A DNA stretch of 26,883 nt, counting the filler, from Candidatus Huberarchaeum crystalense (GTDB lineage Archaea; Huberarchaeota; Huberarchaeia; Huberarchaeales; Huberarchaeaceae): assembly GCA_002790315.1 (NCBI GenBank). It is 5 parts of 5 records of this genome, joined end to end, with 100 filler letters (N's around TTAATTAATTAA, not from the genome) between each part and the next. Parts side by side here need not be neighbours in the genome. Positions count along the whole stretch, not along the records: positions 1 to 16,692 come from PFUW01000012.1; positions 16,793 to 19,260 come from PFUW01000024.1; positions 19,361 to 21,223 come from PFUW01000011.1; positions 21,324 to 25,061 come from PFUW01000029.1; 1 more part is not named here. One strand, written 5' to 3'. Positions 2-24,284 of this stretch are shown piece after piece; positions within the stretch are counted from its first letter, which is position 1, and every line of letters begins with the position of its first letter. The translations under genes were made by a program, and so were the position numbers. The notes below the pieces were generated by a model. The model ran no database searches, was not told the DNA's origin, and saw only the letters and a program-made list of their open reading frames with translations.

Positions 2-430
2 TGCTGTTTTTGTATAATTATTAAAATTGCCTTCTTTGTCTTCTGCATAATATGAAAAATTTGCGTAATGCATACCTGCTGCACTACAATTTGTTTTTAG
101 GTTTAATATGATGTTTAGTGTGGAACTGTGGCTTAAATTAGTTGTGTTGAAAATAAGGATGTTGTCATTTGTTGCGTTTTCGAGCGCGCTAGTGTTGCCG
201 CTCACAAACCATTCGAGCAAAGAAGTATTTGCAGGTAGAGTATAATTAATTGTTAAGTTATATAAATAATCGCCTGCATTGTTTGTGGTTATAATTGAAA
301 GGTTTGATTCGTTGCAGATGTTTGTATCGGGTGCATTGATGTAGAATGTTACGCTGGTTATTGGAGAGTTTGCGAACGAGCTAACAAGAGTTGATCCTAT
401 GAAAAATAACATAAATATCACAACAAAAAT
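2..430 (-). CDS. Secreted or cell-surface glycoprotein, N-terminal part (partial at both ends; not in ORF track)
   Basis: Minus frame is open from the gap edge to the window start: IFVVIFMLFFIGSTLVSSFANSPITSVTFYINAPDTNICNESNLSIITTNNAGDYLYNLTINYTLPANTSLLEW...NNYTKTA. Signal-peptide-like hydrophobic start, 12 N-X-S/T sequons in 143 codons. Confidence 0.8.
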   Translation of the reverse strand, partial: MFVVIFMLFFIGSTLVSSFANSPITSVTFYINAPDTNICNESNLSIITTNNAGDYLYNLTINYTLPANTSLLEWFVSGNTSALENATNDNILIFNTTNLSHSSTLNIILNLKTNCSAAGMHYANFSYYAEDKEGNFNNYTKTA

Positions 431-463
431 NNNNNNNNNNNNNNNNNNNNNNNNNNNNNNNNG

Positions 464-730
464 AACAACATAGTCATTGTTGACTTTTGGGCGCCATGGT
501 GCGGGCCCTGTCAGATGATGGCTCCTATTTTTGAAGAACTTTCAAAAAAGCATGAGGATTGGACTTTTGTAAAATTAAATGTAGATGAAAATAATGAAAA
601 ACCAAGTCAATATAGTGTTAGCGGAATACCTACTTTTATTATATTTAAAGGCGGCGAGACAGTTAAGCGAATTGTTGGCGCGCGCCCTCTTGAAAGCATT
701 GAGCGCGAAATTGAAGATGTTGTTGAATAA
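464..730 (+). CDS. trxA: Thioredoxin (5' end in N gap)
   Basis: Extending ORF 515..730 upstream in frame gives NNIVIVDFWAPWCGPCQMMAP (WCGPC active site). Also VKLNVDEN and GIPTF cis-Pro motif. Confidence 0.95.
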   Translation, partial: NNIVIVDFWAPWCGPCQMMAPIFEELSKKHEDWTFVKLNVDENNEKPSQYSVSGIPTFIIFKGGETVKRIVGARPLESIEREIEDVVE

Positions 731-762
731 ACCCACAAAAATTATAAAAATAATTCAATTTC

Positions 763-896
763 ATATAAAGTATTGCTGATAAATCTACAAAAATCATATG
801 TTAGAAATATTAACTGAAAATATCTTACAAAAAATATTATATAAAGTATTGCTGATAAATCTACAAAAATCATATGTTAGAAATATTAACTGAAAA
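763..896 (+). repeat. Two identical 58-bp direct repeats (763-820, 839-896; period 76) covering the TATA-like box, ATG and first codons of rfcS
   Basis: ATATAAAGTATTGCTGATAAATCTACAAAAATCATATGTTAGAAATATTAACTGAAAA read twice. Confidence 0.95.
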
Positions 897-1827
897 ATAT
901 AGGCCGTCAAAAGTTAAAGATGTTGTGGGACAGCCAGAGATCACTTTACGTTTGGCTGCATTTATAAAAGCTAAAAACATCCCTCACTGCTTGTTTGCAG
1001 GACCACCGGGCGTTGGAAAAACGAGCGCTGCAATTGCAATGGCAAAAGAATTATTTGGACAAGAGTGGAAAGCAAATTACATAGAAATGAACGCATCTGA
1101 CGAGCGCGGAATTGATATTGTTCGCGATAAAATTAAAGAATTCGCAAAAACCGCACCACTTAATACAGAATACAAAATAATTTGCTTAGATGAAGCAGAT
1201 GCTTTAACAAAAGACGCACAACATGCTTTGCGACGAACAATGGAAACATTTTCAAAAACCTGCCGCTTTATCTTAATATGCAACTACTCTTCGCGCATCA
1301 TAGACCCTATTCAATCCCGATGCGCAATTTTTCGATTTAAAAATGTTGATGCAGCAGACATAGCTAAAAAAATAAAGGACATCACAGAAAAAGAACAAAT
1401 TAAATGCGAAGAAGGTGCTATTGAAGAAATCGCAAAAGTCGCAGAAGGAGATTTAAGACAAGCAATTAATATTCTTCAAATAGCGTCGCCAGATGTTAAA
1501 ATAAAAGAAGTTTATGAAATATTGGGCAGAGCCCAATCAAATCAAATCCTAGAATTATTATTCTTGTGTTTAAATAATGAGTTTATAAATGCGCGCAAAA
1601 AGTTGCGCGACTTCTTGTTTAATCAAGGTATAGAGAGCCATTTTATTCTTAAAGAAATAAGCCACCAAATTGCTGAAAATACAGAACTAAGACTTGACGA
1701 TGTTGAGCGCGCAAAAATATTGTCTTTAATAGGTGATGCAGAATTTAGGGTAAATGAAGGCGCAGATTCACTTATACAAATTACTGCATTATTAGCAAAT
1801 ATTGCAGCACTTAGCAGCCATAAATAA
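874..1827 (+). CDS. rfcS: Replication factor C small subunit
   Basis: EKYRP box II, GPPGVGKT Walker A, EMNASDERG, LDEAD Walker B, SRC motif, GDLRQAIN. Confidence 0.97.
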   Translation: MLEILTEKYRPSKVKDVVGQPEITLRLAAFIKAKNIPHCLFAGPPGVGKTSAAIAMAKELFGQEWKANYIEMNASDERGIDIVRDKIKEFAKTAPLNTEYKIICLDEADALTKDAQHALRRTMETFSKTCRFILICNYSSRIIDPIQSRCAIFRFKNVDAADIAKKIKDITEKEQIKCEEGAIEEIAKVAEGDLRQAINILQIASPDVKIKEVYEILGRAQSNQILELLFLCLNNEFINARKKLRDFLFNQGIESHFILKEISHQIAENTELRLDDVERAKILSLIGDAEFRVNEGADSLIQITALLANIAALSSHK

Positions 1828-2006
1828 ATATTGTCAAAATTGTGTTTGTTAAGAGATTTATAATTTTCGCAATATTTAAACTTTTAGCTCAGTAACCTTT
1901 TGATTTTCAAATATAGCAAACCTTTACTACAAAAAGCACACTTTAATTTATAGAATCTTTATTCAAATTACATACAAACATTAAAACAAAAACAAGAGTA
2001 AATAAA

Positions 2007-2315
2007 TTATTTTCTTACTTTTCGTTCTACGCCAACTTTCTTAACATTTGCTTTCCAAACTTTGCTTCCAAGCCATTTAGGAGCACCACTAGGAACTGAA
2101 ATTTGTTTTCTGTTTCCTTTAAATGTATGTACTCTAATTACATTGTCTTGCAATCTTTTTCTTTCTCTTAGATCTATGTTTGTGCTTCCTCTTGCAGCAG
2201 CTTTTAATGCAGCAGCTCGTGGTGATTTGTTGTGAAATATAACATTTGTATCTTTGCCTTTGTTGTCAAGAAGAACATAATATTTCTTCTGACTACTTGT
2301 TGCTTTTTTTGCCAT
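2007..2315 (-). CDS. Non-histone chromosomal protein MC1
   Basis: YVLLD..G....F..KSPRAAALKAAARG...I.LRER...VHTFKG...P...PKWL....K..VKK matches the methanogen MC1 pattern (PRQAALKAANRG, LRERGT, P.WM). GGGGGG SD-like tract upstream. Confidence 0.88.
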   Translation of the reverse strand: MAKKATSSQKKYYVLLDNKGKDTNVIFHNKSPRAAALKAAARGSTNIDLRERKRLQDNVIRVHTFKGNRKQISVPSGAPKWLGSKVWKANVKKVGVERKVRK

Positions 2316-2442
2316 TTTTTCCCCCCTTTGAAAAAATAAAAATACATTAACTTTTAAGGTTAATATTATTTCCTATTCTTTGTTTTGTGTATTTGAAAAG
2401 GTTGCAAAATTTTTTAGAAACTTTACATTTTCCTTTTAACAC

Positions 2443-2691
2443 TTTGCTCGCGCAAAATGCAGACATACTTTACTTAGTAAAGTATATAAAACCGTTGTAT
2501 GTAACGATTTTACATAAAAAGTTCGCTCTGGAACTTTTCATATCATAATGTGTATAGGTAAGTTGATTTAAAAAGAAAAGTGATTTATATGCCTCTATTT
2601 AGTATATAAATGTAAAAACATTTGTCTCTTTTAAAATATCTTTTGTTAAATATACTCTTGTGCAAAATACGCAAAAGTTGTTTCAACAACT
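2443..2691. promoter_or_regulatory. Cluster of inverted repeats in the divergent MC1/rps10 intergenic region
   Basis: TTTGC-N4-GCAAA 2443-2456; ATACTTTACT-T-AGTAAAGTAT 2465-2485; TATGTAA-N5-TTACATA 2498-2516; AAAAGTTC-N6-GAACTTTT 2517-2538; AGTTGTT-TC-AACAACT 2676-2691. Function is inferred. Confidence 0.5.
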
Positions 2692-2762
2692 ATTATATTT
2701 ATGTTAAAATATCTTATGGTATTAACTCAAAAAATTAAAACATTACAAACAAGGATTTTGTA

Positions 2763-3071
2763 ATGGCTAAACAAACGAAAATAAAACTTACAAGTACGAG
2801 CATTGACGAGTTAAATAATGTTATATCTCTCATAAAAGAGGTTATTGACCGCACAGGCGCTAACGTTAGAGGACCTGTTCCTTTACCTACAAAAATCTTG
2901 CGGGTTTCACCAAGAAAAAGTCCTTGTGGTGAAGGAGTAAGCACTTATCACAAATTTCAAATGCGTATTCATCGCAGAATTTATATTTTTGACACATTAA
3001 ATGATCGCGCGCTTCAGCAAATTACGCGCCTCCCTATTCCAACAACAGTAAAAGTTGAATTGTTTATGTAA
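2763..3071 (+). CDS. rps10: 30S ribosomal protein uS10
   Basis: GPVPLPTK, RKSPCGEG, FQMRIHRR archaeal S10 motifs. Confidence 0.96.
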   Translation: MAKQTKIKLTSTSIDELNNVISLIKEVIDRTGANVRGPVPLPTKILRVSPRKSPCGEGVSTYHKFQMRIHRRIYIFDTLNDRALQQITRLPIPTTVKVELFM

Positions 3072-3193
3072 TTAGGTTAGGTGTACTAAATTTAGTCAAC
3101 TAAACAATAAGCAAACAATATTTCAAAAAATTTATGGTTTTATGTGAAATAGATTATTTTACATAACATCTTACACACAAACTTTTATATATT

Positions 3194-3275
3194 GCGGGGA
3201 TGGCGGAACGGCAACGCGCACGCCTGGAAAGCGTGTGTTCGTGAGGACTTGCAGGTTCGAATCCTGCTTCCCGCA
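3194..3275 (+). tRNA. tRNA-Ser(GGA), long variable arm
   Basis: Acceptor GCGGGGA/TTCCCGC, anticodon arm CACGC-CTGGAAA-GCGTG, variable arm GTTC-GTGA-GGAC, T arm GCAGG-TTCGAAT-CCTGC. CCA not encoded. Confidence 0.93.
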
Positions 3276-3332
3276 TTTAAGGGGCATTGTTGTGCGTTTT
3301 GCATAACTTGCACCTGCTCCTCGTATTTTACT

Positions 3333-3404
3333 GCTCGCGTGGGGTAATGGATAACCTGGGAGCTTGCGGAGCTTCTGATCCGGGTTCAAATCCCGGCGTG
3401 AGCA
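3333..3404 (+). tRNA. tRNA-Arg(GCG)
   Basis: Acceptor GCTCGCG/CGTGAGC, anticodon arm GGAGC-TTGCGGA-GCTTC, T arm CCGGG-TTCAAAT-CCCGG. Confidence 0.93.
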
Positions 3405-3417
3405 CTATAAAATTTAT

Positions 3418-3490
3418 GCCCTAGTAGCTCAGTTGGTAGAGCGGCTGACTTGTAATCAGCAGGCCGGGAGTCCAACTCTCCCCTAGGGCT
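3418..3490 (+). tRNA. tRNA-Thr(TGT)
   Basis: Acceptor GCCCTAG/CTAGGGC, D arm GCTC-AGTTGGTA-GAGC, anticodon arm GCTGA-CTTGTAA-TCAGC, T arm GGGAG-TCCAACT-CTCCC. Confidence 0.92.
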
Positions 3491-3572
3491 TTTATCAAAC
3501 AGCTATGTGTAATATTAGTTAGTGCGCGCCTTAACCAAATTTTTATAAATTTCAACATTTAATAAATAAAAT

Positions 3573-3833: not shown

Positions 3834-4064
3834 GTAGCACGCCCACATGTTGTATTATTTGTTGCTTTTCACTCTCTCGTTCGCCTTGCAGGATGACTAT
3901 ATAAATGACTATATAATATATCTTAAATAAAATTTCTTGCAGAAATTTTTCAAATGCTCAGCCATGTCGCGCATTTTATTTAATTTAATATTATGAATTT
4001 AAACCACNNNNNNNNNATTTAAGCAATAGCATCAAAACCTGACAAAAGTATTAACCCCCCAAAA

Positions 4065-4601: not shown

Positions 4602-6052
4602 TTATTGTATATTGTTTATGATTTTATNNNNNNNNNTTATAAGAGTAATATCATCACCTTTTAAACTTAAAAAAATATCAGGAGTTATACTTGGATTCTG
4701 CTCGTATGCAGCAATTAGTACAAGAGCAGCAGCATCTACAACTGCATTTTTTTCATCATTGTTTTTTCTTTTACTTTTAGCAAGATTGTATAATTTATCT
4801 ACTCTCTTTCGCGATTCAGCATTAAGAATAACAAGCTTTGCAAACCTATTAAAATATCCATCGATTCGCACAGGAGTAATACAAAATCCAATTGTTTGAA
4901 AAATAAGTTTATAAGTAATGTTTATTTTCTTGTTATCAATTCCGAAATATTTTGCAATTTCTGAAAATGTTAGTGGAGTTTTATGTTTTCGCATTACAAT
5001 ATACAGCAAAGCCCCTAATATCTGTTCGCGCGCCCTTCCGCGGACAACTTTCTCTGTTATTAACTTTTTATAAAGAAGCTTAATTTCTTCTGTAATATAA
5101 AAAGGAAGATCAAAATAACGTTGCATTCTTAATAGCTCACCATACGCCATTTGAAGATTTCGTTCAATTGTTGTGACAATCATCATTTGCCATTTGTGCA
5201 AGCGGTAATATTCTTTTTGTTTATAAGCAGGAACATGCTTAATATCAACAGACCCCCTACCAACCATAGATCCTATTCCGTCTGCATGATGAATTGATTT
5301 TGATGCTTGTGCTCTTGTTCGTGAAACAAGCTGATTAAAGTCAAATGCGCGCCATTCTTGACCTGTGTTAATAGAAATATCAATAATATTACCGCATTTT
5401 TCACAAAATTCCTCACCTGTTGTTAAATCTATAATAATTTTTCCTCCACAATTAGGACAAACATCTGCTTGTCTTTTAGATGTTTGCTGGGTGTCTCTGA
5501 CTTCTTTAAAAACTTTAAAAAAAAACTGACGAATATCTTCTTGCTGTTCAGGAGTAAGCGAAATTTTACTAGGAATTTTTTTCTCGGCAGGCAATATCTC
5601 ATCTTCTTTGTCTTTAATATTATCATTGTCTTGAAAAGCATGTACATTTTTAATATCTTCTTCAAATTTAGATTGAGATATATTAGCGCTAGTTTTAATA
5701 TTCTCTTCCATGTTCTGCTCTTTTTCGATAAATTTTTTGTTTGCATTTTTTAAGTTTTTCAAACTAGATCTTGACAATACTTTGTATTTTGGCTTGCTTA
5801 CAAACAATATTTTGTTGTGTTTTACTAATTTATTTTTAGATAATATTTTATAATTGTGTTTTGTTGATTTGTTTTTGTCCGATGTTTTATCTTTGTGTTT
5901 TACTAATTTANNNNNNNNNNATCTTTGTGTTTTACTAATTTATTTTTAGATAATATTTTATAATTGTGTTTTGTTGATTTGTTTTTGTCCGATGTTTTAT
6001 CAAATTTCTGGTTTTTTGTAGTGTTATGGGTTATTTTCTTAACTTTTATCAT
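4602..6052 (-). CDS. tfb: Transcription initiation factor TFB with long repeat-containing N-terminal extension (spans two N gaps)
   Basis: Zn ribbon CPNCGG...TGEEFCEKCG, B-reader GQEWRAFD, linker RLHKWQ..ERNL, first cyclin fold VRGRA...ALLYIVMRKHKTPLTFSEIA. The frame is open upstream of the track's TTG (5807) through the repeat array and, across the gap, to ATG 6052. Confidence 0.85.
5816..6001 (-). repeat. 78-bp coding tandem repeat (26 aa: DKTSDKNKSTKHNYKILSKNKLVKHK); two near-complete copies plus a partial, broken by gap 5911-5920
   Basis: TGTGTTTTACTAATTTA recurs at 5816, 5894 and 5926. The full unit is identical on both sides of the gap. Confidence 0.92.
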
Positions 6053-6056
6053 AATA

Positions 6057-6428
6057 TTATTTATTTATTAATTTATATAACTCATCAACACGCTTGTTAT
6101 CAATTTTTTTTCCAAAGCAATAGTGAGGCACAAGCCCACCTGAAAAATGAGTAGGTATATGCAATAACTCATGAATCAGCACGCGATCTTTATCCTCCTC
6201 TGGCAATGCATCAAATTTTTCTGTTATAACCTCAATAACATAATACACCGGCAAACGCAAACACTGACGCCAAATAAGTGGCAAAGACCAAATGCGCGCA
6301 ATTGCTCTTGTTTTTGTGCCATAGCTCCGAACACAAAAAATGTGCGTAGGATCGCAATGATCAAACCCTATTTGAGATATTATTTTGCAAATACGTCTGT
6401 GTATTTCAGTATCGCCAAAGCATTTCAT
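6057..6428 (-). CDS. Small putative zinc metallopeptidase (HEXXH)
   Basis: RSYG...AIARIW.LP, YVIEVITEKFD.L..DK.RVLIHELLHIP..FSGGL.PH. Stop lies 4 nt before the tfb ATG. Confidence 0.82.
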   Translation of the reverse strand: MKCFGDTEIHRRICKIISQIGFDHCDPTHIFCVRSYGTKTRAIARIWSLPLIWRQCLRLPVYYVIEVITEKFDALPEEDKDRVLIHELLHIPTHFSGGLVPHYCFGKKIDNKRVDELYKLINK

Positions 6429-6457
6429 AAGATTTTTANNNNNNNNNNNNNNNNNGT

Positions 6458-7583: not shown

Positions 7584-8951
7584 ATGAAATCTATAAAGCA
7601 AGACGAGAAAAATAAATATCTTCTTGACACAAGCGTAATAATTAATCAAAAAATAAGCGAATTAATAAAAGCAAACAGCATTCCTGATCACAGTATAATA
7701 ATTGTACCAACTATTGCTTTGCGCGAACTTGAACACCAAGCAAACCGTAAAGAGAGAAGAGGATATGCGGGACTTGAAGAACTACAAACTTTGCAAGATT
7801 TTGCAAAAAGCGGAAAAATAGAGTTGATTTATGAAGATGTTCTTTACACAGTAGGAGATGTCACTTCTGCAAAATTAGGATCTCTTGATGACATCATTGT
7901 TAAAGCAGCAATTCGCAATAATGCAATATTAATTACCGCAGATCGCGTGCAATCAAAAGTAGCAGCTGCTCAAGGTTGCAAAACATATTTTTATGATTTT
8001 TCGAGCAACAAATTCGTTTCTGACTTTCAAACAAAAGAGCCCACTACTTTATCTTTTGAAGAATTTTTCAACAAAGACACACTGTCAATTCATTTGATTC
8101 AAGACAGTTTTGTTTTTGCAAAAATAAGAAAAAACAAAAAAGTAAATTATATAAAAATATCAAAAAACTTTTTATCCTATGATGAAATAAAAAGAATACA
8201 CCACGAAATAAAAAACCACCCTCTTTTTGTTTCAGAAAGCGCTGATCAAAATTATATTTTGGGGAAAATAAATGAATATCGCATCATAATGACAACTCCT
8301 CCACTTAGTGTAAGGTTAGAAATAATTGTTATTAAACAGAGAACCATAAAAACATTTGCAGAGTATAAGATATCTAAACAACATACAGATTTTTTGATAA
8401 ATGCCAAAAGTGTTATCATTGCAAGCGAAATTGGCGGTGGAAAAACATCTTTTGCGCGCGCACTTTTCTTCAAACTATCAAAATGCGGAACTGAAAAAGT
8501 CGCAAAAATACTTGAATCCCAGCCAGAGCAAATTATGTGTGAAAATATAAATCAATACAACAAATCTACAATCACAACAGAAGATTTAAAGCAGTTGATT
8601 TTATCAAGTAGAACCGATGAATTATTATTTGATGAAATCAAAACACAGGAAGATGTGAAATTGTTTGCAGACCTCAGATTAGCAAATATAACAACAATAA
8701 GCACTTTAAATATCGCTGACAAAGTGTGCGCGCTTCATTTTATTTTCAGCAACTTGCCTTTTATTGTTGCCATCAGTGTTATTAATGCGTTTGTGTTCTT
8801 AAATAAAGACGGCAGTATTGATGAAATTTTGGTCCCAAAAATAAATATTAAAAATAGTAATTTATCAGTAAAAATTGTTGATCTAAATGGAAATGCAAGA
8901 TTTGAGTGTTTTAAGCAGCAAAATGAATTGGTTGTTAATGCTATAAAATAA
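7584..8951 (+). CDS. PIN domain + PilT/VirB11-like ATPase (PINA family), divergent, no C-terminal KH region
   Basis: PIN: LLDTSVII, ELEHQAN...GYAGLEEL, LITADRVQ. ATPase: SEIGGGKTS, ILES, LLFDEIK..ED..LFADLRLA. Confidence 0.82.
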   Translation: MKSIKQDEKNKYLLDTSVIINQKISELIKANSIPDHSIIIVPTIALRELEHQANRKERRGYAGLEELQTLQDFAKSGKIELIYEDVLYTVGDVTSAKLGSLDDIIVKAAIRNNAILITADRVQSKVAAAQGCKTYFYDFSSNKFVSDFQTKEPTTLSFEEFFNKDTLSIHLIQDSFVFAKIRKNKKVNYIKISKNFLSYDEIKRIHHEIKNHPLFVSESADQNYILGKINEYRIIMTTPPLSVRLEIIVIKQRTIKTFAEYKISKQHTDFLINAKSVIIASEIGGGKTSFARALFFKLSKCGTEKVAKILESQPEQIMCENINQYNKSTITTEDLKQLILSSRTDELLFDEIKTQEDVKLFADLRLANITTISTLNIADKVCALHFIFSNLPFIVAISVINAFVFLNKDGSIDEILVPKINIKNSNLSVKIVDLNGNARFECFKQQNELVVNAIK

Positions 8952-9712: not shown

Positions 9713-11050
9713 TTAACAGACTTGTTTTCTTTTTAGTATTTTTATTGCTGCTTTAAAAAGAAGTTTTTGCTCGCAATTTTGAATCTGCCCATAAATGTTT
9801 AAAATGCTATTTTCATCAAATATTTCAAAACATAGTGGCTGTTCTAATAAAAGCAATTGTAAAATTGTTTCTGAATCTTGCGACTGCATAAAAAATACAC
9901 AATCAACACCAATAGTCTTACAGCGCGCGCTAATATATTCTAGTTCTTGTAGTAGTAAATTTTCAGACAAAGAATTTACTTTTAACAAAAGTTGTTTTGG
10001 ATGCAATTTCAATAGATCGTCAATAGAAAGCGCGTCTTGCTCACGAACTAAAAAACCAAAAATATAATTAAAACTTCGCAAAACAGAAACAACCTCTTCA
10101 ATTTGAAAAATATCAAAACCAGAGCAATCAAGCAAAATTTTTAAATCGCGCAAAAAATATGTGCTTGCCATAGACAACAAGGTATTTATTTGCTCTTTTT
10201 TTACAATTATCCACTTAGAACTATCTGCCGATTTATTATTAAAATATATATAAGAAGCAAGATTATTGTTTAGGTTTGCTAAAAATAAAACTTGGGTAAA
10301 AGGCAATTGTAAATTTAAATCAGTTTCTTTAACTTGATTTTCAATAATATTAATAAATCTTATTAAAAAGATAGAACTATTTTCTATAACAAATTGTGCA
10401 ACAGTATTTTTTAAATTTAGTTGTTGAAGTTGTGCAATAAATTGCCGAAGCAATATTTTGTCTTGTGTATTTAATTTTTGTTGTGTTTGCTGCTCTTGGG
10501 AAATAGGCACAGATATTAAATCAAATGTGTAATCGTCTCTTGCTAACCTCTTTGTTTGTGAAAAAATCTTTTTAGGCACAATTTCTTGACTGTTCTGATC
10601 AAAAATATATTCTTCAAATTCAGAGTCCTTAGCATACATACCTATTTTGGCTTTTATTCTAATTTCAGAATTTTTAAACTCAACATCCCCACTTTTTTCT
10701 GCAAAAATTGTGCGTTGCACAAGAATATTTTTTCCATCTTTAACAATGGACTTTATATTAGCAAAAAAATCCGCAAAACTTCGAATATTATATTTTTCAA
10801 AATCTTCACAAAACAAACTTATTGGAAAAATATCATGTGTTTTCGCAAGTGAAATATTAGCATAAGTGAGTTGCTGTTGTGTATTAGAAGTGAAAGACAC
10901 ATAAAAAGCGCGCAACTGCTGTTCATCAAGAGCAGATTCATCTTGCTTTTGACAAACAAGCAAACTTGTTTGGGGTAATTTAAACCCTACACTGCGCGCT
11001 GCTGTTAAAAGAAAAGAGTTATCAAGTTGATTAAGAGAAAGTATTTTCAT
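9713..11050 (-). CDS. Highly degenerate PEP synthase (PpsA/PPDK-family) homologue, probably non-catalytic
   Basis: GFKLP, ILVQRTIFAEKSG, IKAKIG, EEYIFD, KKIFSQTKRLARD, VPISQEQQTQQKLN echo the PpsA ATP-grasp domain. FGFLVRE..ALSIDDLLK...VNSLS and ISARCKTIGVD echo the C-terminal barrel. No phospho-His motif. Confidence 0.68.
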   Translation of the reverse strand: MKILSLNQLDNSFLLTAARSVGFKLPQTSLLVCQKQDESALDEQQLRAFYVSFTSNTQQQLTYANISLAKTHDIFPISLFCEDFEKYNIRSFADFFANIKSIVKDGKNILVQRTIFAEKSGDVEFKNSEIRIKAKIGMYAKDSEFEEYIFDQNSQEIVPKKIFSQTKRLARDDYTFDLISVPISQEQQTQQKLNTQDKILLRQFIAQLQQLNLKNTVAQFVIENSSIFLIRFINIIENQVKETDLNLQLPFTQVLFLANLNNNLASYIYFNNKSADSSKWIIVKKEQINTLLSMASTYFLRDLKILLDCSGFDIFQIEEVVSVLRSFNYIFGFLVREQDALSIDDLLKLHPKQLLLKVNSLSENLLLQELEYISARCKTIGVDCVFFMQSQDSETILQLLLLEQPLCFEIFDENSILNIYGQIQNCEQKLLFKAAIKILKRKQVC

Positions 11051-11217: not shown

Positions 11218-12894
11218 ATGAAATATCTTAAACTTGCTGAACTTTACAAAATATTGGAAGAAACACCTAGCACACTCGAAAAAACAAAAATAATATCTAA
11301 CTTTTTAAAAAATATGACATCAAAAAGTGAAATAGAAAATGTAATTATGCTTATTTTGGGGCGCGCATCATCAAAAATTGAAGGGGTTGTATTTAATATG
11401 GCTGAAAATTTAATTATAAAAGCAATTTCTTTGAGCAGCGGAAAATCTATCAAATATATCAAAGACATTTTTGCAAAAACAGGAGACCTCGGGCTAACAA
11501 CAGAAAAAATTCTTGAAAACAATTATCAAAAATCACTTTTTTCAAAAGAGCTAACAATTTCAGATATAATTGCTAATCTAAGAAAACTTGCAGAAATAGA
11601 AGGAAAAAAATCTCAAAATATCAAAATAAACATACTTCTTAATCTTTTAAATCAAGCATCGCCGCTTGAAAAACGCTATTTGATTAGAACTATTTTAGGT
11701 CAACTAAGAACGGGTGTGTCTGACGGTTTTGTTAGAAATGCGCTAGCCAATGCTTTTGACAAAGATCCAAATATTGTTCAGCAAGCCATTGATTATACAA
11801 ATGACATTTCAGAAGTTGCTGTTGCAGTGGTTGAAAATAGGATTGAAAAAATTAAACCTTGCTTGTTTAAGCCGATTTCTTCTATGTTAGCGCAAAAAGA
11901 GCCTTCAATTGAAGAAGCATTAAAAAGGTTTGAAAAACCGTCAGCAATAGAACAAAAGTATGATGGAATGCGCGCACAAATTCATAAAAAAAAAGATATA
12001 GTTATAATTTTTACGCGACGGTTAGAAAATATAACAAAACAATTCCCTGAGCTTGCTAAGTTAGTAAAAACAAACATAAAAGCAGAACAAGCAATTGTTG
12101 AAGGAGAAATTGTAGCTATTGATGAAAATAGAAAACCCCTACCATTTCAATTTTTATCCCAGAGAGTTAAACGAAAATATGGTATTGAAAAAATAATAAA
12201 ACAAATACCTATTGAAATCAATTTATTTGATTGTTTGCTTGTTGATGAAGAAATTATAATAAATACCCCCTTTAAAGAGAGGAGAAAAAAATTAGAATTA
12301 ATTGTTAAGGAAAGTAAAAACTTTTATCTTGCTAAGCAAATCATAAGCGATTCTGCTGACGAGATTAATAAATTTTATAAAGATGCATTAAAAATAGGTC
12401 ATGAAGGAATAATACTTAAAAATCGCGATTCACCTTATGTTCCTGGAAAAAGAGTAGGACATATGCTAAAACTTAAACCTGTTTTAGAAACATTAGATTT
12501 AGTTATTGTTGGTGGTGATTGGGGTGAAGGAAAGCGCACGCAGTGGTTTGGATCTTTTCTTTTGGCGTGTGTCAATAAACAAACAGGTGAATATTTGACA
12601 ATTGGAAAAATGGGCTCAGGCTTAACAGATGAAGAGTTTGCAAACATTACTGTTGAACTAAAAAAAGACATAATAAAGCAAGAAGGAAAGAGTGTGCAAT
12701 TTTATCCAAAAATTGTTGTTGAGGTTGCTTATGAAGAGATACAAAAATCACTTGTTTATACAAGCAAGTATGCTTTAAGATTTCCGAGATTAGTAAAAAT
12801 TAGAGATGATCGGCTGCCGACAGATGCCAGTGATTTGGAAGTTGTTGAAGAAATTTATAAACAGCAAAAAGGCAAGATTACAAATTATATTTAA
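11218..12894 (+). CDS. lig: ATP-dependent DNA ligase
   Basis: Motif I EQKYDGMR, TGDLG, IVEGE, LFDCL, EGIILK, LKLK, ALRFPR; PCNA-binding-like QKSLF in the N-terminal domain. Confidence 0.97.
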   Translation: MKYLKLAELYKILEETPSTLEKTKIISNFLKNMTSKSEIENVIMLILGRASSKIEGVVFNMAENLIIKAISLSSGKSIKYIKDIFAKTGDLGLTTEKILENNYQKSLFSKELTISDIIANLRKLAEIEGKKSQNIKINILLNLLNQASPLEKRYLIRTILGQLRTGVSDGFVRNALANAFDKDPNIVQQAIDYTNDISEVAVAVVENRIEKIKPCLFKPISSMLAQKEPSIEEALKRFEKPSAIEQKYDGMRAQIHKKKDIVIIFTRRLENITKQFPELAKLVKTNIKAEQAIVEGEIVAIDENRKPLPFQFLSQRVKRKYGIEKIIKQIPIEINLFDCLLVDEEIIINTPFKERRKKLELIVKESKNFYLAKQIISDSADEINKFYKDALKIGHEGIILKNRDSPYVPGKRVGHMLKLKPVLETLDLVIVGGDWGEGKRTQWFGSFLLACVNKQTGEYLTIGKMGSGLTDEEFANITVELKKDIIKQEGKSVQFYPKIVVEVAYEEIQKSLVYTSKYALRFPRLVKIRDDRLPTDASDLEVVEEIYKQQKGKITNYI

Positions 12895-14161
12895 GGTTCT
12901 CAAAATTATCATCGTCTTCATCAGAATTTATGTCTTTAATTCCAAGTTCTAAAATATCTTGATTTTTTGCGCGCTCTCTTTCAATTCTTTCTTTTGCGTC
13001 CTCGTTTGCTCCACTTGTTAGTGCTTCAATGTTTAAATTGCGCGCTAAGGTTTCAGTAGCTTTTTTCTCCATAGTTGCCCGGGGACCCAGTATTTGTGCA
13101 GAATTAACATTTGTGATTAACAGTAAAAGTTTAACTGCATTTTCTTGGGCTTCGTCATATTGACAGCCCCAAATTTTCTTAGCACCATGAGCCATATTGT
13201 CAAGTTTTTTAATTATTTGATTTACTTGCGGCAAGGTCACTTTATTGTTAATTGTTATGTTTATAAGCATACCTGTAGCATCTGAAATATCTACACTAAG
13301 CAAAGGATTTGAAGTTGTATTGTTTATTAGTTCGTCAACAAAACCCTCATTATTTTGCGTAATACTGCTTACTCCAATCATTGCTACACCTCCTTCTTTC
13401 ATTATGCTGCGAACATCATTAAAGTCCAAATTTATAAGTCCTGGTTTAACAACCATATCTGCAATACCTTTTACTGCATTAGATATAATATTGTCGCACA
13501 ACTTAAATGCATCTTTAAGTGATAAAGTAGGACTTATATTTAATAGTTTATCATTTGGAACAACAATAAGTGTATGAACTATGTTTTCAATCTCGCGAAA
13601 TGCTTTTTTGCTGTTTTCCCATCTCTGCTTTCCTTCTGCTTCAAAAGGTAAAGTGACAATTCCAACTACTAATGCACCAGTTTTTTTTGCTATTGCTGCG
13701 ATAACAGGTGCTGCTCCACTACCTGTCCCACCCCCAAGTCCGCAAGTTATAAAAACCATATCTGCATTATCTAACACATCTTGAATTTCCTTACTACTGT
13801 TTTCTGCTGCTTTTCTTCCTTTTTCAGGATCTGCGCCTGTTCCTAAGCCATGGGTAAGATCTTCGCCAATCAGTATTTTTTTATGCGCCTTTTTATTCAA
13901 AAGGTCTTGAGCATCTGTGTTTATTGCTATTGTTTCAAAACCCAAACCACTAAATTCCATCAAATTATTCAAAGTATTGTTACCAGCTCCGCCAATGCCG
14001 ACAACGCGAATTGCGCGGCTATTTTTTTTAACAAGTTCGCGCAACTTTTCCTCAACACCTAACAAGCCAGCGTTTGACGATGAGGATTCATAAGTTAAGT
14101 AAGATGAAGGTAGAGAATCATAAGGTGTAATGTTTGCCTTTGACGAGGAGATAATAACCAT
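12878..14161 (-). CDS. ftsZ: Cell division protein FtsZ
   Basis: [31 protein letters not shown] tubulin signature, [14 protein letters not shown]. 17-bp convergent overlap with lig. Confidence 0.97.
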
Positions 14162-15323: not shown

Positions 15324-16286
15324 ATGGCAAAAATCAAACCAGCAAATCTAAAAATTTTCAAAAGGCAGCATTATTCTGTTGTTGGAAACCACTCTGCTGT
15401 TGAAGTTTGCTCTTGGACAAAAAAATCGCTGCTAAACAAAGGTGTTTGTTATAAAGAAAAGTTTTATGGTATAAAAAGTCATCGCTGCATTCAAATGACT
15501 CCTGCAGTAGCGTGGTGTGATTTTGCTTGCTTGTATTGCTGGCGATCGCACGAATACTCACAAGGAACAAGTATGAAAGGAAATATTGACGACCCAAAAA
15601 CAATTATAGATGGTGCAATTGAAGCGCAACGCAAGCAACTTTCTGGTTTTAAAGGCAATGAAAAGACAAATCTTAAAAAATGGCAAGAAGCGCAAAATCC
15701 ATTCTCATTTGCAATTTCTCTAAATGGTGAGCCAACACTATATAAAAAACTACCTGAATTTATTAGAGAATTAAGGGCGCGCAAAATAATCTCTTTTCTT
15801 GTTAGCAATGGGTCGCATCCACAAATGCTTAAAAAGCTTTATAACAGTGACTCTCTGCCTGACCAAATATATATTTCTCTTACTGCAATTAACGAAAAAA
15901 TGCACAAAAACATTAATTGCCCTTTAGTTAAAAATAGTTGGAAGCGAATTTTGCAAACATTGAAACTCATCCCAAACTTAAAAGAAAAATGCAGAACCAT
16001 CATTCGTTTAACTCTAATAAAAGACAAAAATGACAGCAACGATGCAGCAGAAAAGTTCGCACAACTAATTAAATTAGCTAATCCTAATTTTATTGAAATT
16101 AAGTCATATATGTTTCTTGGATACTCTAGAAAACGGCTGAAAAAAGAAAACCAATGCACTCATGAACAAGTGCGTCAATTTTCAAAAACATTGGCAGGTT
16201 TGTGTGGATTAAAGGTTTTAGATGAGGCAGAAAATAGTAAGGTGTGTTTAATAGGAATGAAAAAGTGCGCGCGATTCGATAAATAA
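15324..16286 (+). CDS. tyw1: tRNA 4-demethylwyosine synthase (radical SAM)
   Basis: HSAVEVCSWTK, CYKEKFYGIKSHRCIQMTP, CDFACLYCWR, AISLNGEPTLY, YMFLGYSR. Confidence 0.95.
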   Translation: MAKIKPANLKIFKRQHYSVVGNHSAVEVCSWTKKSLLNKGVCYKEKFYGIKSHRCIQMTPAVAWCDFACLYCWRSHEYSQGTSMKGNIDDPKTIIDGAIEAQRKQLSGFKGNEKTNLKKWQEAQNPFSFAISLNGEPTLYKKLPEFIRELRARKIISFLVSNGSHPQMLKKLYNSDSLPDQIYISLTAINEKMHKNINCPLVKNSWKRILQTLKLIPNLKEKCRTIIRLTLIKDKNDSNDAAEKFAQLIKLANPNFIEIKSYMFLGYSRKRLKKENQCTHEQVRQFSKTLAGLCGLKVLDEAENSKVCLIGMKKCARFDK

Positions 16287-16793: not shown

Positions 16794-17204
16794 TTACCTC
16801 AAAATCAATCTTTCAGCCCCACATGCCTCGCACTTGAGAGCATAAAAATCCTCTCGCTTCTCAAGAACAGTATCATATTTACCACAAGTATGACATACAA
16901 CATATTCTTTCAAATATTGCGAAAATGCCTCACGAATTAACCCAGAATTTATTTGCTGATAAAAACTCGCGTCACTGCTTAGCAGGATTTCTGCGCGCGC
17001 AGCAAACTTTTTAATTAAAAACTTCAATATATGCTTTGGTTCTCGCTTAATTTTTTTCGCAATGTCAGCAAGATTTTTGATTATTGTTTTATTTTTTGTA
17101 GATATTATTTGAAGACCAGGAACAATAAATCGTTCGTCGCTCGCTTTGTGTTTGACTTTGGAAAGAGCTAAATCAAGCATTGTTTCATAATCAGGTAAAG
17201 ACAT
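16794..17204 (-). CDS. eif2b: Translation initiation factor aIF2 subunit beta
   Basis: DYETMLD, ERFIVP, TIIKN...I.....REPKH, YVVCHTCGKYDT, KCEACGA. ATG 17204 preferred. Confidence 0.94.
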   Translation of the reverse strand: MSLPDYETMLDLALSKVKHKASDERFIVPGLQIISTKNKTIIKNLADIAKKIKREPKHILKFLIKKFAARAEILLSSDASFYQQINSGLIREAFSQYLKEYVVCHTCGKYDTVLEKREDFYALKCEACGAERLILR

Positions 17205-19840: not shown

Positions 19841-20475
19841 CATATGATTTAGGAATTACAACATATGACCCTGAGGGAAATATAAAGCAAGTAACCTATG
19901 CTGCTAAGGCAGTTGAAAAAGGCGATTCTGCAGTAGGTATTGTGTTTGATAAAGGCGCGCTCTTGACTACAATTTTCTCGTCAGAATCTAAACTACTTGT
20001 TCCTGAGTTTTCTGAAAAAATTTTCAAAATAGAAGACAATCTTTATATAGCAGCTAGTGGCATTTCTTCTGATATTCAAGTTTTAGTGCGAAAGGCTCGC
20101 GTCTTTGTTCAAAACGACCAGCTTTTATATAAACAACCAACGCAACCACACATTCTCGCAGAGTTTCTTGCTAATGAGATGCACAACTGCACCCAGCAAG
20201 CACCAACCAGACCATACGGCGTCTCGCTTTTACTTATAGGATTTGATGACAACACTCCACGACTCTTTGAAATAAATCCTGCAGGAGTTATGAGGGCGTT
20301 TTACGGCCGCGCAATTGGTAATAAATCCTCAGAACTAAACGCAGAACTTGAAAAAAAATACAATCCAAACCTTGACGAAAAAAGCGCAAATTCATTAGTT
20401 AAATCTCTTTTTAAAAAGGTTAATGGTGATAATTTTAATGAAAAACAGCTAAGTGTTATATCTATCAAAAAATAG
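19837..20475 (+). CDS. psmA: Proteasome subunit alpha (short, divergent)
   Basis: YDLGITTYDPEG...QV.YA.KAV..G, EKIFKI, SGI.SD, RPYGVSLLL.G, PRLFE..P.G, AIG. Confidence 0.88.
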   Translation: MTYDLGITTYDPEGNIKQVTYAAKAVEKGDSAVGIVFDKGALLTTIFSSESKLLVPEFSEKIFKIEDNLYIAASGISSDIQVLVRKARVFVQNDQLLYKQPTQPHILAEFLANEMHNCTQQAPTRPYGVSLLLIGFDDNTPRLFEINPAGVMRAFYGRAIGNKSSELNAELEKKYNPNLDEKSANSLVKSLFKKVNGDNFNEKQLSVISIKK

Positions 20476-21065: not shown

Positions 21066-21223
21066 AATATATTTATTTTTTATATTTGTTGAATTTAATT
21101 GCGCGCACCATATATGTTGCTGTGGTTTTTTTCTGATTTTTAAGTATTTTGCTTTAAGTATTTTGGTTTTTAAGTGCTTGTATATTGCTTTTAAATACTT
21201 TTGGTTTTAGGTATTTTGTGTTT

Positions 21224-21325: not shown

Positions 21326-21430
21326 ATTTACGGCACAATTATTCAGTTAAAAAATCCAAAAAATGCACGAAAAATCATAAAGATTGGAATGCTGATCGCG
21401 TTAATTGCGTTTATTATAGGGGTAATTTAA
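21326..21430 (+). CDS. 3' end of a membrane protein, resembling a UbiA-family DGGGP synthase C-terminus (partial)
   Basis: IYGTIIQLKNPKNARKIIKIGMLIALIAFIIGVI*. K.GM..AL.AF..G is the typical final helix of DGGGP synthases; only 34 aa visible. Confidence 0.5.
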   Translation: MYGTIIQLKNPKNARKIIKIGMLIALIAFIIGVI

Positions 21431-21582
21431 AGTTTTAAATTTTAAACTGTTAGGATAATTTAAAGTTTAAACTTTTCTTTCTTCCTCTTTTCCTTCAGCA
21501 TGTTTTCTAAGTTTTCTTAACATTTTAAAACCCATACTTTAACATTTTTTTATCCTATGTTTTAAACACCTTATTTTAACAT

Positions 21583-22152
21583 TTATTCACTAAATACAAC
21601 TGCCTGGAACTTATATAATTTTGAAGATTTATCCGCCCACATATCATCTGATAGCATAGCTTTTCTGCATAAATTTGTCAGATATTTTTCTACATTCCAA
21701 CCATATTCTATAGCAACTTGTGGAAGCAACAAACCAGACCCAAAACCATGCTCAATAGCTAAACCGTCGCGCCCAATTTTGATTTCTTTTTTGATTTCTT
21801 CTGGTTCTGAACTTTTAATTTTTTGAAATTCACTTAATATAGATACTTCTATTTTAATATCTTGTAGTTCATCGCGCTTTAGTGGCATAAAGCGATTATC
21901 TTTAAATCCAGCACCTATTGCAGCGTCTTTTAAACTTCTGCCTAATGAATATTTTGCTATTGGATAACCAATACATCCTCTTAGTTCATTTGTATGTTTG
22001 TTGTGTATGGTTACAAAAACACCGCGGGGATAAGTTAAAATGTGTTTTAAAGAGTCAGGTGTTTCTATTTTTTTGTTTGTAAAAAATTCTTCAATACTAT
22101 CGCGCGCCAACTTACATAATTCTTTTCCTTGATTTGCTGTAATTTTAATCAT
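21583..22152 (-). CDS. AMMECR1-domain protein (TIGR00296-like)
   Basis: RGVFVTI, LRGCIG, D.RF.PL, EVSILS, IGRDGL, GLLLPQVA.E..W, LC.KA. ATG 22152 preceded by GGAG. Confidence 0.93.
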   Translation of the reverse strand: MIKITANQGKELCKLARDSIEEFFTNKKIETPDSLKHILTYPRGVFVTIHNKHTNELRGCIGYPIAKYSLGRSLKDAAIGAGFKDNRFMPLKRDELQDIKIEVSILSEFQKIKSSEPEEIKKEIKIGRDGLAIEHGFGSGLLLPQVAIEYGWNVEKYLTNLCRKAMLSDDMWADKSSKLYKFQAVVFSE

Positions 22153-22198
22153 TTTATTTCTCCAACACACAACATAATATATTTATATTTATAAAAGT

Positions 22199-24284
22199 TT
22201 AGTATATTTGCGCGCCAGATTCAACTTTTCTATCTGTTTTAATTTTCTCATTTTTTGTTGTAAGTGGTTTGTTGTTGTATATTACTTCACCTTTTTTATT
22301 TACAACTAAGTTCACTGCTTGAAAATCTGAAAATTCAATTTCACTATGCAGTTTTAATTCAGTTGGTTCAACAAAAACAGCTGACCCTTTTTCACTTGTT
22401 TCAACAATCAAAATTGACCATTTTTGTGCAAGACCATCACGCTTTTCTGCGATTAATATCATTCCTTGGGATTCAAATCCCTTTAATGTGCGCGGCTTTA
22501 AGTTTGTTAAAAATACTGCTTTTTTTCCAATCAATTGACTTGGAGAATAATGCGCTCTGATTCCGCTGACAATTTGGCGTTTTTCGCTTCCAAAATCAAC
22601 TTGCAAGACTAATAATTTGTCTGAATCAAGAATTGGCTCAGCAAAAATAATTTCTCCTATTTTTAGATCAAGTTTTGAAAAATTGTTGATTTGTTCTTTG
22701 GGTTTGTCANNNNNNNNNNNNTTTCTCAAATAAAGGCTTATTTTCACCACTTTCTAATCTTTTTATTGCATTTGGAATTATTGGTGAAATTAGCTTAGAT
22801 ATAATCTGTATTTTTATGTATAGTTCTTTCAAAACTTCTTTGTTTTTTGCTTCGCGCAAACTACCTTCTTTTTTACTCTGCGTAAATTTATCATTACTAT
22901 CACCGCTTTTCCAAGGAGCTTTATCTTGCATGAATTTATTTGCTTCAGCACATTCGTTTAAAATATCTTTTAAAACTTTGCTAAGAAGCAGCTCATTATC
23001 AAGATTGTTTTTAATTTTTTCATATAAAGTGCTTTTTTCAATATTTACCTGAGGCAAATCAATTATATTTTTGGTTTTTATCAATGTTTTAACGCGATGA
23101 ACTAAATTTCCGAAATTGTCAATAAGTTCTTTATTTATAATGCGCTGGAAATCTTCCCAGGAAAATAAGGTGTCTGTCTTTTCAGGCAATTTATAAATAA
23201 GATAAAACCTCCAATAGTCTGCAGGAAAGGTCTCTAATGCAACTTCATTATTCAATCCAACACCCCTACTCTTTGAAAATTTTGTTTTCCCTCCTAATAA
23301 AAAAGCATAGCCCTTTAATTTGTTGACAAGATTGTAATTTTCATCTGCTCCTTTTAAGATACAAGGAAAGAAAATAGAGTGAAAAAAAATATTATCCTTC
23401 CCTAAAAACTGCACAAGCTTAACCTTGTTGGTTTTCCACCAATTTTCCAGTTTTTCACCACTAATATCACACCAATCTTTAGTAATTCCAACATATCCTA
23501 TTGGTGCATCAAACCAAACATAAAAAACTTGCTCTTCAAAACCTTGTTTAGGAATATGAAATCCCCAATTAGTTCCTGATCGCGATATTGCGCGCGCTTT
23601 TAGTCCTTTGTTCAAATACCCTTTTGTAACTGCAAGGGGAAATGAATCCATTTTATTTGAATTAAGCCACACATCTAATTTTTTATGAGCCCAAATTTTT
23701 GGCAAGTCAAGATATAGATTTTTTAGTTTCTTTCTTGTAATGTTTTTTCTGCCGCAATGGATACAAATAGGATTTAAGATTTCGTTTGTATCTAATATTT
23801 TTGTACAATCATCACACTGATCTCCTCGCGCCAAACCTCCACAATGCGCGCACTTACCTTCAACCCATCTATCTGCAAGATATAGTTTGCAATCTTCGCA
23901 ATAAAACATTTCGCTATTTTTTTCAAAAATATAACCATTTTTATCTAATTTTTTAAAAATTTCATAAGTTATTTTTTTATTATTTTCACTGTTAGTAATT
24001 CCATAATAAGTAAATTCAAGTCCAAAACATTCAAGGATTTTTTTATTTTTTTCATGCATATCATAAACATAATCTGCTGTTGGAATTCCTGCTTTTTTTG
24101 CAGAAACTTCAAACATTGTTCCGTGACTATCACTGCCACAAATAAAGATTACATCTCTATTTAAAAGTTTCATATATTTATAATATACATCTGCCGGTAG
24201 TAAGGATCCAACGAGATTTCCTATGTGTAAGATTCCGTGTATATAAGGAAGTGCAGAAGTTATTAATATCTTTTTATTATACAT
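22199..24284 (-). CDS. metG: Methionyl-tRNA synthetase with C-terminal tRNA-binding OB domain (one gene; apparent split caused by gap 22710-22721)
   Basis: ITSALPY...LHIGN, four CXXC knuckles, FYVWFDAPIGY, GKDNIFFH, KFSKSRG; then FSKLDLKIG, RQIVSGI, NLKP...GFESQGMIL. Confidence 0.93.

Follow-up and report, generated by a model that had tools for sequence, protein, structure and literature searches.

Why should the AT-rich genome of an archaeon carry the same six-letter palindrome about once in every kilobase? The question is raised by a window of 26,883 nucleotides from Candidatus Huberarchaeum crystalense (assembly GCA_002790315.1), which consists of contig C36 (positions 1-16692) and four short contigs joined by N's, and in which the initial annotation had described GCGCGC as behaving like a highly iterated palindrome (HIP). 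Counted with overlaps, GCGCGC occurs 32 times in the window, whereas 100 dinucleotide-preserving shuffles averaged 1.27 and never exceeded 4; these matches merge into 27 separate runs (18 exact GCGCGC, five GCGCGCGC, three CGCGCGC and one GCGCGCG). The parent bin (453,293 bp in 42 contigs, 31.5% G+C, 77.85% complete) contains 509 copies, or 1,123 per Mb. Models of rising order predict fewer on each strand, namely 6.9 (base composition), 18 (dinucleotides), 167 (trinucleotides) and 275 (tetranucleotides). Among all hexamers GCGCGC ranks first under the Markov comparison that had been suggested for it, at 28 times its dinucleotide expectation, and it occurs in every codon phase as well as outside genes. 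The enrichment is thus real and stronger than had been claimed, and this archaeal chromosome has in GCGCGC, together with the longer form GCGCGCGC, a true highly iterated palindrome.

The gene content of the window is archaeal (RFC, TFB, RNase HII, an ATP-dependent DNA ligase, FtsZ, TYW1 and MetRS), and contig C31 of the same bin encodes a full-length archaeal 23S rRNA (L094:328-3138). The window stretch is contained, nearly letter for letter, in 24 groundwater or aquifer metagenome runs, all of which are stored as contigs built from short reads. Two independent metagenome assemblies, L003 and L004, represent the same organism and each contain 23 GCGCGC per 21.7 kb (0.3 expected); because both carry the same load, the enrichment is not an assembly artefact. 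Outside positions 11034-11200 these assemblies are 99.8-100% identical, with one single-nucleotide polymorphism at position 4025 (A/G), and the variation as a whole, one true polymorphism and one intergenic indel variant, is too little for polarising mutations. At 11034-11200, which leads from the open reading frame (ORF) at 9713-11050 to the ligase gene, L003 has a rearranged or duplicated stretch, with a length difference of about 47 nt.

To separate DNA from coding effects, 361 ORFs of at least 90 aa, spanning 308 kb, served as a proxy for genes. They contain 374 GCGCGC, whereas 60 within-gene synonymous shuffles that keep both the protein and the codon counts give 41.1 +/- 6.4 (maximum 55) and codon permutation gives 19.0 +/- 3.9; the enrichment therefore survives the codon-preserving shuffle on which the initial annotation had staked its claim. 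The three codon phases are all used (128/102/144), the copies are spread evenly along the ORFs, with flat deciles, and on compositionally typical contigs GCGCGC exceeds its composition expectation 71-fold within the ORF set and 107-fold elsewhere. The codons GCG and CGC are unusually common for an AT-rich genome, CGC making up 25% of Arg codons, but CGC use falls mainly within the motif: Ala-Arg dipeptides are spelled GCGCGC in 127 of 256 cases, where codon usage predicts 9.4, and GCACGC in only 5, where it predicts 35. Ala-Arg and Arg-Ala dipeptides are themselves found at 1.4-1.6 times their amino-acid expectation. In the DNA ligase, the Ala of the Arg-Ala encoded at site 11361 is Ile or Val in seven of seven aligned homologues, and the Arg-Ala at site 11970 is common only to the two nearest homologues (74% and 71% identity); judged from these alignments, the two sites appear to show, anecdotally, protein sequence yielding to the motif. 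The process acts on DNA, not on codons.

Which word is being enriched becomes clear when maximal alternating G/C runs are compared with a dinucleotide Markov model. Isolated GCGC is observed 395 times (439 expected) and isolated CGCG 201 times (137 expected), while the five-letter runs CGCGC and GCGCG number 186 and 192 (40 and 43 expected). Exact GCGCGC runs number 298, with 11 expected, compared with 46 CGCGCG runs, with 3.3 expected. At eight letters there are 61 runs of GCGCGCGC (expectation near 0, or 21 under a tetranucleotide-preserving model) and two of CGCGCGCG (expectation near 0), and alternating runs of at least 10 nt are absent altogether. The enriched unit is thus (GC)3 or (GC)4, with G first and C last, and not the 4-bp GCGC. 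Measured against base composition, GCGC overall stands at 6.9, and enrichment grows roughly multiplicatively with each added unit (6.9, 80, 425). Only alternating GC is in excess among dinucleotide repeats, (AT), (AC), (AG) and their relatives lying near expectation. On typical contigs most other 4-bp palindromes are strongly avoided, with observed/expected (O/E) composition ratios of 0.08 for ACGT, 0.20 for CTAG, 0.21 for GTAC, 0.26 for TCGA, 0.33 for CATG and 0.37 for CCGG.

The same unit emerges from the ratio of C to T at synonymous third positions, pooled over both strands. These C:T odds are 0.26 in neutral context and rise with the run that lies 5' of the position, from 0.85 after a lone G to 1.86 after CG, 3.1 after GCG and 15.5 after GCGCG. 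At positions 2, 4 and 6 of GCGCGC they are 3.8, 26.9 and 15.5, whereas the inner C of a GCGC standing alone reaches only 0.65. Runs are not preferentially extended by G (0.21 for H-Y-GCGC), and the share of G-start runs that extend by G drops from 0.60 (4 to 5 nt) to 0.25 (6 to 7 nt) and 0.03 (8 to 9 nt). A logistic model assigns positive weights to GpC (x3.3), GCG/CGC (x2.2), GCGCG (x4.9) and CGCGC (x3.8), a weight of x0.29 to CpG and no positive weight to any tetramer (GCGC, 0.6), and it penalises CGCGCG (x0.16). In the dinucleotide background, rho is 1.66-1.70 for GpC (1.53 with GC runs masked) and 0.75, a low value, for CpG, and NCGN tetramers are all depleted (ACGT 0.08, TCGA 0.26, the rest about 0.35) unless a G precedes or a C follows the CpG. 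Variants of GCGCGC that differ by one letter number 551 at positions 1/6, 441 at 2/5 and 190 at 3/4. The flanks show a weak T before and A after and, in a pattern suggestive of longer runs that have decayed, G at -2 and C at +2; an extended motif was rejected on the weakness of this flank preference, and a DNA uptake or Chi-like signal on the grounds that GCGCGC is a 6-bp palindrome and not an oriented word of 8-12 nt with strand bias.

Does any other archaeon do this? No other member of the phylum is present in the GTDB genome set that we searched. Its DNA ligase is 74% identical to that of the metagenome-assembled genome HGW-Euryarchaeota-1, after which the next matches, from Altiarchaeales and other archaea, fall to about 48-49%; the closest ligase among 300 archaeal genomes has 49% identity, and a scan of genome contigs with the 74%-identical ligase as query returned no match. 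None of the 300 other archaeal genomes combines at least 10 GCGCGCGC with a ratio to its reversed control, CGCGCGCG, above 5, compared with 67:6 here; the highest count pair among them is 18:4, and genomes of similar density have ratios of about 1. The pattern is unique among the 301 archaeal genomes compared. No archaeal HIP and no over-representation of GCGCGC is described in the full texts that we searched, their supplementary files lying outside that scope, and within those texts this is the first HIP found for an archaeon and for the GCGCGC word.

The analogy with the cyanobacterial palindrome HIP1 (GCGATCGC), drawn at the outset, proves apt. Both are short GC-rich palindromes that are the most over-represented word of their genome, recur about once per kilobase and disregard reading frame and coding status, and the density found here lies within the range of 500-2,500 per Mb that Elhai (2015) quotes for HIPs. 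As in the HIP1 data given there, one-off variants mostly affect the outer letters, and the two words share a plan of G, a methylatable core and C (G+CGCG+C here, G+CGATCG+C in HIP1; Elhai, 2015). Unlike HIP1, the present word is a hexamer and not an octamer, it lacks a GATC core, its host is an archaeon whose genome measures about 0.5 Mb, and no orphan methyltransferase for the core was found in this 78%-complete bin. A closer formal match is the GGCGCC of Calothrix PCC 7103, also a 6-bp GC-only palindrome and an extreme hexamer outlier, which Elhai (2015) presents as an alternate HIP accompanied by a cytosine methyltransferase that recognises the palindrome or a part of it; unlike that case, the only cytosine methyltransferase of this bin would, by homology, read an unenriched 4-bp sub-site, and it lies on a foreign-looking contig. 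Enzymes that form 5-methylcytosine (m5C) at GCGCGC exist, as the BssHII-type methylase of Neisseria meningitidis shows (PMC7973814). The word is the same, but no such enzyme was found in this genome, and the portion of that article available to us does not describe over-representation.

Taken together, the best reading is a HIP-like, protein-mediated process of 5-6 bp specificity, probably linked to methylation or repair, which we favour tentatively and at a good deal less than an even chance. Under this reading, C would be kept over T, and G over A, wherever doing so completes or preserves an alternating run that begins with G, ends with C and measures 6 or 8 nt; the process would read at least 5-6 bp, so that a 4-bp GCGC alone gains nothing. 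The likely agent would be a sequence-specific protein system coupled to mismatch correction, as proposed for cyanobacterial HIPs, and could work through cytosine methylation of the palindrome or its core followed by biased repair of T:G to C:G. MutS, NucS and UDG-family genes were not found in the 78%-complete bin, where absence is not proof; on the chromosomal contigs, a search for Vsr, a Mig-type glycosylase, NucS, MutS and UDG found none of these, save one Ogg-like protein, the only HhH-GPD glycosylase (C5:1843-2274, minus strand). If the absence is true, the methyl-directed MutS/MutL ratchet of Elhai is inapplicable as written, since no MutS was found, any T:G-specific activity would gain unusually large leverage, and the correction of G:T and G:U mispairs would fall mainly to a system of the kind proposed. 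Methylation at GCGCGC, biased repair there and the identity of a hexamer-reading enzyme are, for now, what we infer from the pattern.

Candidate enzymes for such a process do occur in the bin. Contig C1, a 2,190-bp contig outside the window, encodes on its minus strand a small helix-turn-helix controller (1811-2005), an HhaI-like C5 methyltransferase (816-1814; PF00145, E 2e-72) and a HinP1I-like nuclease of 250 aa (71-823), and directly after the nuclease gene comes the start of a Vsr gene, whose first 22 codons are present before the contig ends. The catalytic half of the methyltransferase matches M.HhaI (E 1.8e-49, residues 7-205 only), and the nuclease aligns with R.HinP1I along nearly its whole length (residues 6-249 of 250, E 1.2e-79). 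The Vsr fragment meets positions 1-20 of the Pfam Vsr profile at E 0.099, the match being cut by the contig end, and shares 95% identity with the opening residues of a full-length Vsr (133 aa) found at the same position in a related cassette. We take C1 to encode a predicted GCGC-type m5C restriction-modification system with very-short-patch repair, the GCGC specificity resting on homology and on the pairing of the genes. The methyltransferase search that had been proposed at the start thus turned up a GCGC-type m5C methyltransferase, a nuclease and a Vsr start, but no methyltransferase for CGCG or GCGCGC.

Much of what is known of these enzymes and their targets weighs against the repair-linked reading. 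The cassette's own site, isolated GCGC, occurs at 0.9 times its dinucleotide expectation and is not enriched, and the deamination product GTGC/GCAC is not depleted, with an O/E of 1.47 compared with 1.42 for GAGC/GCTC. The bin, at 78% completeness, yielded no second C5 methyltransferase; the single N6/N4-family methyltransferase match lies on the foreign-looking contig C42, and a motif scan of the genome found no SPPY-type motif. C1 itself is foreign in composition (37.4% GC, rho(GC) 1.23, rho(CG) 1.49, three GCGC in 2.19 kb). The cassette is a promiscuous mobile unit, seen across groundwater bacteria: its nuclease has 5,427 homologues at E<=1e-20, of which the best 120 share 78-96% identity, lie mostly on contigs of a few kb and, where named, belong mostly to Patescibacteria. 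All four public runs examined as Logan contigs contain C1 at an identity of at least 98%, though broken into short unitigs. Because of this composition, these homologues and this fragmentation, the cassette is only putatively resident in the cell, and it looks recently acquired or mis-binned.

Other carriers of the nuclease bear on the same question. A scan of species-representative genomes gave 80 loci. In 48 of these, 4 kb or more of sequence lies beyond the cassette; one of the 48 was dropped because too little sequence remained for judging its Vsr status. Flanking GCGC has a median composition O/E of 1.72 where a Vsr gene adjoins (n=18) and 0.40 where none does (n=29), a difference with a Mann-Whitney p of 3e-6 in a statistic that ignores phylogeny, and the nine highest values (1.97-4.32) all belong to loci with Vsr. 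Counted over whole genomes, GCGCGC stands at about 3-14x in five Vsr carriers and at 0-0.44x in five carriers without Vsr, fold figures that are estimates from rounded genome sizes and the GC content of each locus; the ten counts are not independent of the locus result, because the genomes were picked from its extremes. Here, too, several observations tell against a repair mechanism of the kind envisaged. GGCC, CCGG and CGCG also differ between the two groups (p 0.001-0.006), and once dinucleotides set the expectation, the Vsr group does no more than escape depletion (0.98 vs 0.39). In the two best Vsr carriers, of which 137 kb and 200 kb were sampled, isolated GCGC is in 1.5-2x excess (214/144 and 260/129) and GCGCGC in an excess of merely 2.6-3.8x. 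The signature of the other carriers is at the level of the tetramer, the reverse of that in this genome.

Toy simulations, in which mutation is AT-biased while sequence context lowers the rate of C-to-T changes and raises that of T-to-C changes, use hand-chosen parameters and serve for illustration only. Repair at full GCGC sites only raises GCGC 2x and GCGCGC 3x; added activity at partial sites raises them 3-4x and 7-12x, and hand-tuned, near-perfect repair 6.3x and 30x. When the measured C:T odds in 4-nt contexts are used instead, the di- and tetranucleotide picture is reproduced, but CGCG reaches only 1.1-1.5x (4.9 observed) and GCGCGC 2.5-7x (80 observed). No simulation of T:G repair attained the observed hexamer excess, a further point against the reading, and because those with 4-nt contexts fall short, the required information spans at least 5-6 nt. 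The initial inference of a methylation- or repair-driven mark is accordingly left with candidate enzymes in the bin on one side and, on the other, an unenriched GCGC, a weaker signature in other carriers and simulations that fall short. On its other suggestion, a chromatin-binding self-mark, the data speak neither for nor against. Since the cassette alone does not reproduce the pattern, the HIP-like process would need an additional reader, which could be an enzyme specific for CGCG or GCGCGC that escaped assembly or recognition, or else a wider context preference of Vsr.

If repair does not write the word, selection might keep it. A (GC)3-4 element could be retained because a DNA-binding or nucleoid protein particular to this lineage binds it, or because, methylated or not, it is a short element prone to form Z-DNA, and it could so mark or organise the chromosome at intervals of about a kilobase, an explanation that we consider possible but on the unlikely side. 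It would account for the preference for lengths of exactly 6 and 8 in runs that open with G and close with C, for the extension of just 3% of 8-mers and for the lack of any run of at least 10 nt where the ratio of 8-mers to 6-mers predicts about 12 (GC)5; the near-multiplicative gain per unit, the uniqueness of the pattern among the archaea compared and the signs that protein sequence gives way, in the dipeptide excess and the derived ligase Ala, are in line with it as well. Alternating G-C tracts of 6 nt and of at least 8 nt are generally suppressed across prokaryotic groups in the survey reported in PMC4060949, as far as its available text extends; the runs described here belong to this same Z-DNA-prone class and are in tens-fold excess, and because such runs are generally suppressed (PMC4060949), the excess needs a special cause. 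Close neighbours are avoided, too: five gaps between runs of (GC)3 or more are shorter than 50 bp, against 21.3 +/- 4.5 in random placements (none of 1000 had so few), with a coefficient of variation in spacing of 0.86 vs 0.99 and long gaps as in random placement. This avoidance could come from selection on spacing, but equally from hairpin formation or deletion between close copies. Also at odds with a selected site are the flat distribution along genes, without an intergenic preference beyond composition, the 23S rRNA contig and the giant surface-protein contigs, which manage without the motif, and the length of 6-8 bp, which is short for Z-DNA; no candidate binding protein was identified.

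A second alternative is mutational. Transient primer-template slippage within alternating GC could convert the base next to a run to the letter that continues the repeat, the error would stand uncorrected where mismatch repair is lacking, and long runs, being prone to indels, would be purged. The climb of the C:T odds with 5' run length fits this account, as do similar though weaker trends (about 2x) for (CA)n, (GT)n and C runs, the failure to find MutS and NucS, and G6/C6 homopolymers at about 5-7x their low-order expectation genome-wide. Against it, extension by G is not favoured, as both the H-Y-GCGC context and the shrinking shares of G extension show; a tail of long runs is missing, other dinucleotide repeats lie at expectation genome-wide, and none of the 300 other archaeal genomes shows the pattern, in a comparison that leaves their repair gene content aside. 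We regard this explanation as unlikely. General dinucleotide-repeat slippage of the microsatellite kind was rejected outright, as no run reaches 10 nt and the other repeats are at expectation.

Could the C1 cassette suffice by itself? HhaI-type methylation followed by Vsr repair of GTGC to GCGC would make GCGCGC no more than two overlapping sites. In E. coli, Dcm/Vsr very-short-patch repair biases the genome in this manner, raising CCWGG and lowering CTAG. The parallel extends to the placing of an m5C methyltransferase gene together with a Vsr gene in C1, and to the other nuclease carriers, which keep the methylated word where Vsr adjoins and are there non-depleted or modestly enriched in GCGC; it is also the case that runs starting with G contain more GCGC sites than C-start runs of equal length. 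Unlike in the Dcm/Vsr case, the T-containing neighbour GTGC is not drained, and the excess is at the hexamer and not at the methylated tetramer, isolated GCGC lying at 0.9 times its dinucleotide expectation and the odds at its inner C being only 0.65. With the carriers' tetramer-level signature, the shortfall of the simulations and a cassette that looks recently acquired or mis-binned, this explanation is quite improbable. Nor does the genome resemble a typical host of a type II system of the HinP1I/HhaI kind, to both of whose enzymes the C1 proteins are homologous. The recognition site of a resident restriction-modification system is normally avoided, and carriers without Vsr do avoid GCGC, whereas this genome holds about 4 per kb. 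Among HinP1I-like carriers, the usual GCGC depletion is missing where a Vsr gene adjoins, an association of practical use for inferring past methylation from sequence alone.

That codon usage, amino-acid composition or an assembly artefact produces the excess has next to no chance of being right: frequent GCG and CGC codons speak for it, but it is refuted by both shuffles, by an enrichment that is equal or higher outside ORFs, by the scarcity of GCACGC and the use of CGC mainly within the motif, and by the concordance of independent assemblies.

Within the window, the individual loci illustrate these properties; in what follows, matches are collapsed to runs, ORFs have at least 80 aa and the palindrome is given without a strand. 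In contig C36 the first runs are GCGCGC at 184..189 (ORF 2-421, minus strand, phase 1) and GCGCGCGC at 678..685, outside ORFs. The RFC small-subunit gene contains GCGCGC at 1591..1596 (phase 0, Ala-Arg) and 1707..1712 (phase 2), ORF 2763-3071 (plus strand) contains CGCGCGC at 3006..3012, and the GCGCGC at 3524..3529 again lies outside ORFs. Two runs fall in the TFB gene (minus strand), CGCGCGC at 5027..5033 and GCGCGC at 5347..5352 (phase 2), and one, GCGCGC at 6294..6299, in ORF 6057-6428 (minus strand, phase 0). The PIN-domain gene holds GCGCGCGC at 8454..8461 (phase 0) and GCGCGC at 8728..8733 (phase 1); its product, a 455-aa protein encoded at 7584-8951, has the N-terminal PIN domain as its sole recognised domain. 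ORF 9713-11050 (minus strand), which encodes a 445-aa protein without a Pfam family, holds GCGCGCGC at 9923..9930 and GCGCGC at 10908..10913 and 10994..10999.

The two ligase runs, GCGCGC at 11361..11366 and 11970..11975, are both in phase 2 and both encode Arg-Ala. GCGCGC also occurs twice in the FtsZ gene (minus strand; 12969..12974 and 13040..13045) and at 15777..15782 in the TYW1-like radical SAM gene (phase 0), at the end of which lies GCGCGCG at 16267..16273. On the second contig of the window, ORF 16794-17228 (minus strand) contains GCGCGCGC at 16993..17000. Further along are GCGCGC at 19955..19960 (ORF 19837-20475, plus strand), GCGCGC at 21101..21106 (outside the main ORFs), CGCGCGC at 22101..22107 (ORF 21583-22170, minus strand) and GCGCGC at 22210..22215 (ORF 22199-22750, minus strand), followed by GCGCGCGC at 23590..23597 and GCGCGC at 23846..23851 in the MetRS gene (minus strand). 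The last piece of the window, contig C42 at 25162..26883, provides a contrast: it encodes an N6/N4 methyltransferase of a type III restriction-modification-like system, is foreign in composition and has no GCGCGC, the last site of the window ending at 23851. This absence had been noted in the initial annotation, whose list of 26 loci was exact for 25; position 19975 should read 19955, and the locus at 10908 had been overlooked. Its examples of codon phase hold at 1591 (phase 0), 1707 (phase 2) and 8728 (phase 1), and its two non-genic sites, 3524 and 21101, do lie outside ORFs of at least 80 aa, as does 678.

Several other contigs of the bin depart from the chromosomal average. C17 (4,874 bp) is plasmid- or virus-like, with a rolling-circle Rep gene (2596-3720, plus strand), several ORFs without a family and no GCGCGC; its composition resembles that of C1 and C42 (rho(CG) 1.2-1.5), and C17 and the restriction-modification contigs may belong to one mobile element. 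Viral contigs searched contained no relative of the C1 nuclease. C24, a small contig of atypical composition, encodes a methyltransferase and a glycosyltransferase. On typical contigs lie an open frame with a DPPY motif, an adenine-type methyltransferase candidate (C19:13925-15112, minus strand), and one with an NPPY motif (C39:19827-21629, plus strand), both motifs being typical of adenine-type amino-methyltransferases. C13, C32 and C4 carry giant surface-protein genes with DUF11, MopE-type metal-binding repeats and TSP3 (one ORF has 2,104 aa); their GCGC is sparse (about 1-2 per kb vs about 4) and their CpG low, and they seem to be of more recent origin than the rest of the chromosome or foreign to it. 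The 23S rRNA contig C31 has no GCGCGC, where about 3 would be expected at genome density.

In cyanobacteria HIPs have gone unexplained for about thirty years, with a repair ratchet and a selected function still set against each other. We put forward, with considerable reserve, that Candidatus Huberarchaeum crystalense may hold an archaeal counterpart, in which a symbiont-sized archaeon without MutS, NucS or UDG would write a spaced and hexamer-specific (GC)3-4 mark chromosome-wide, either through an undescribed 5-6-bp repair or methylation system or through selected marking for strand or self discrimination or nucleoid organisation, the C1 cassette being a passenger. Any model of it is constrained by C:T odds of 3.8, 27 and 15.5 along the hexamer, by the lack of gain at 4 bp, by a cap at 8-9 nt and by the avoidance of close neighbours. 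The case differs from the cyanobacterial one in its archaeal host, minimal genome, simpler and different word and apparent lack of MutS/MutL, and a second, independent case of this kind would help to tell which features of HIPs are essential.

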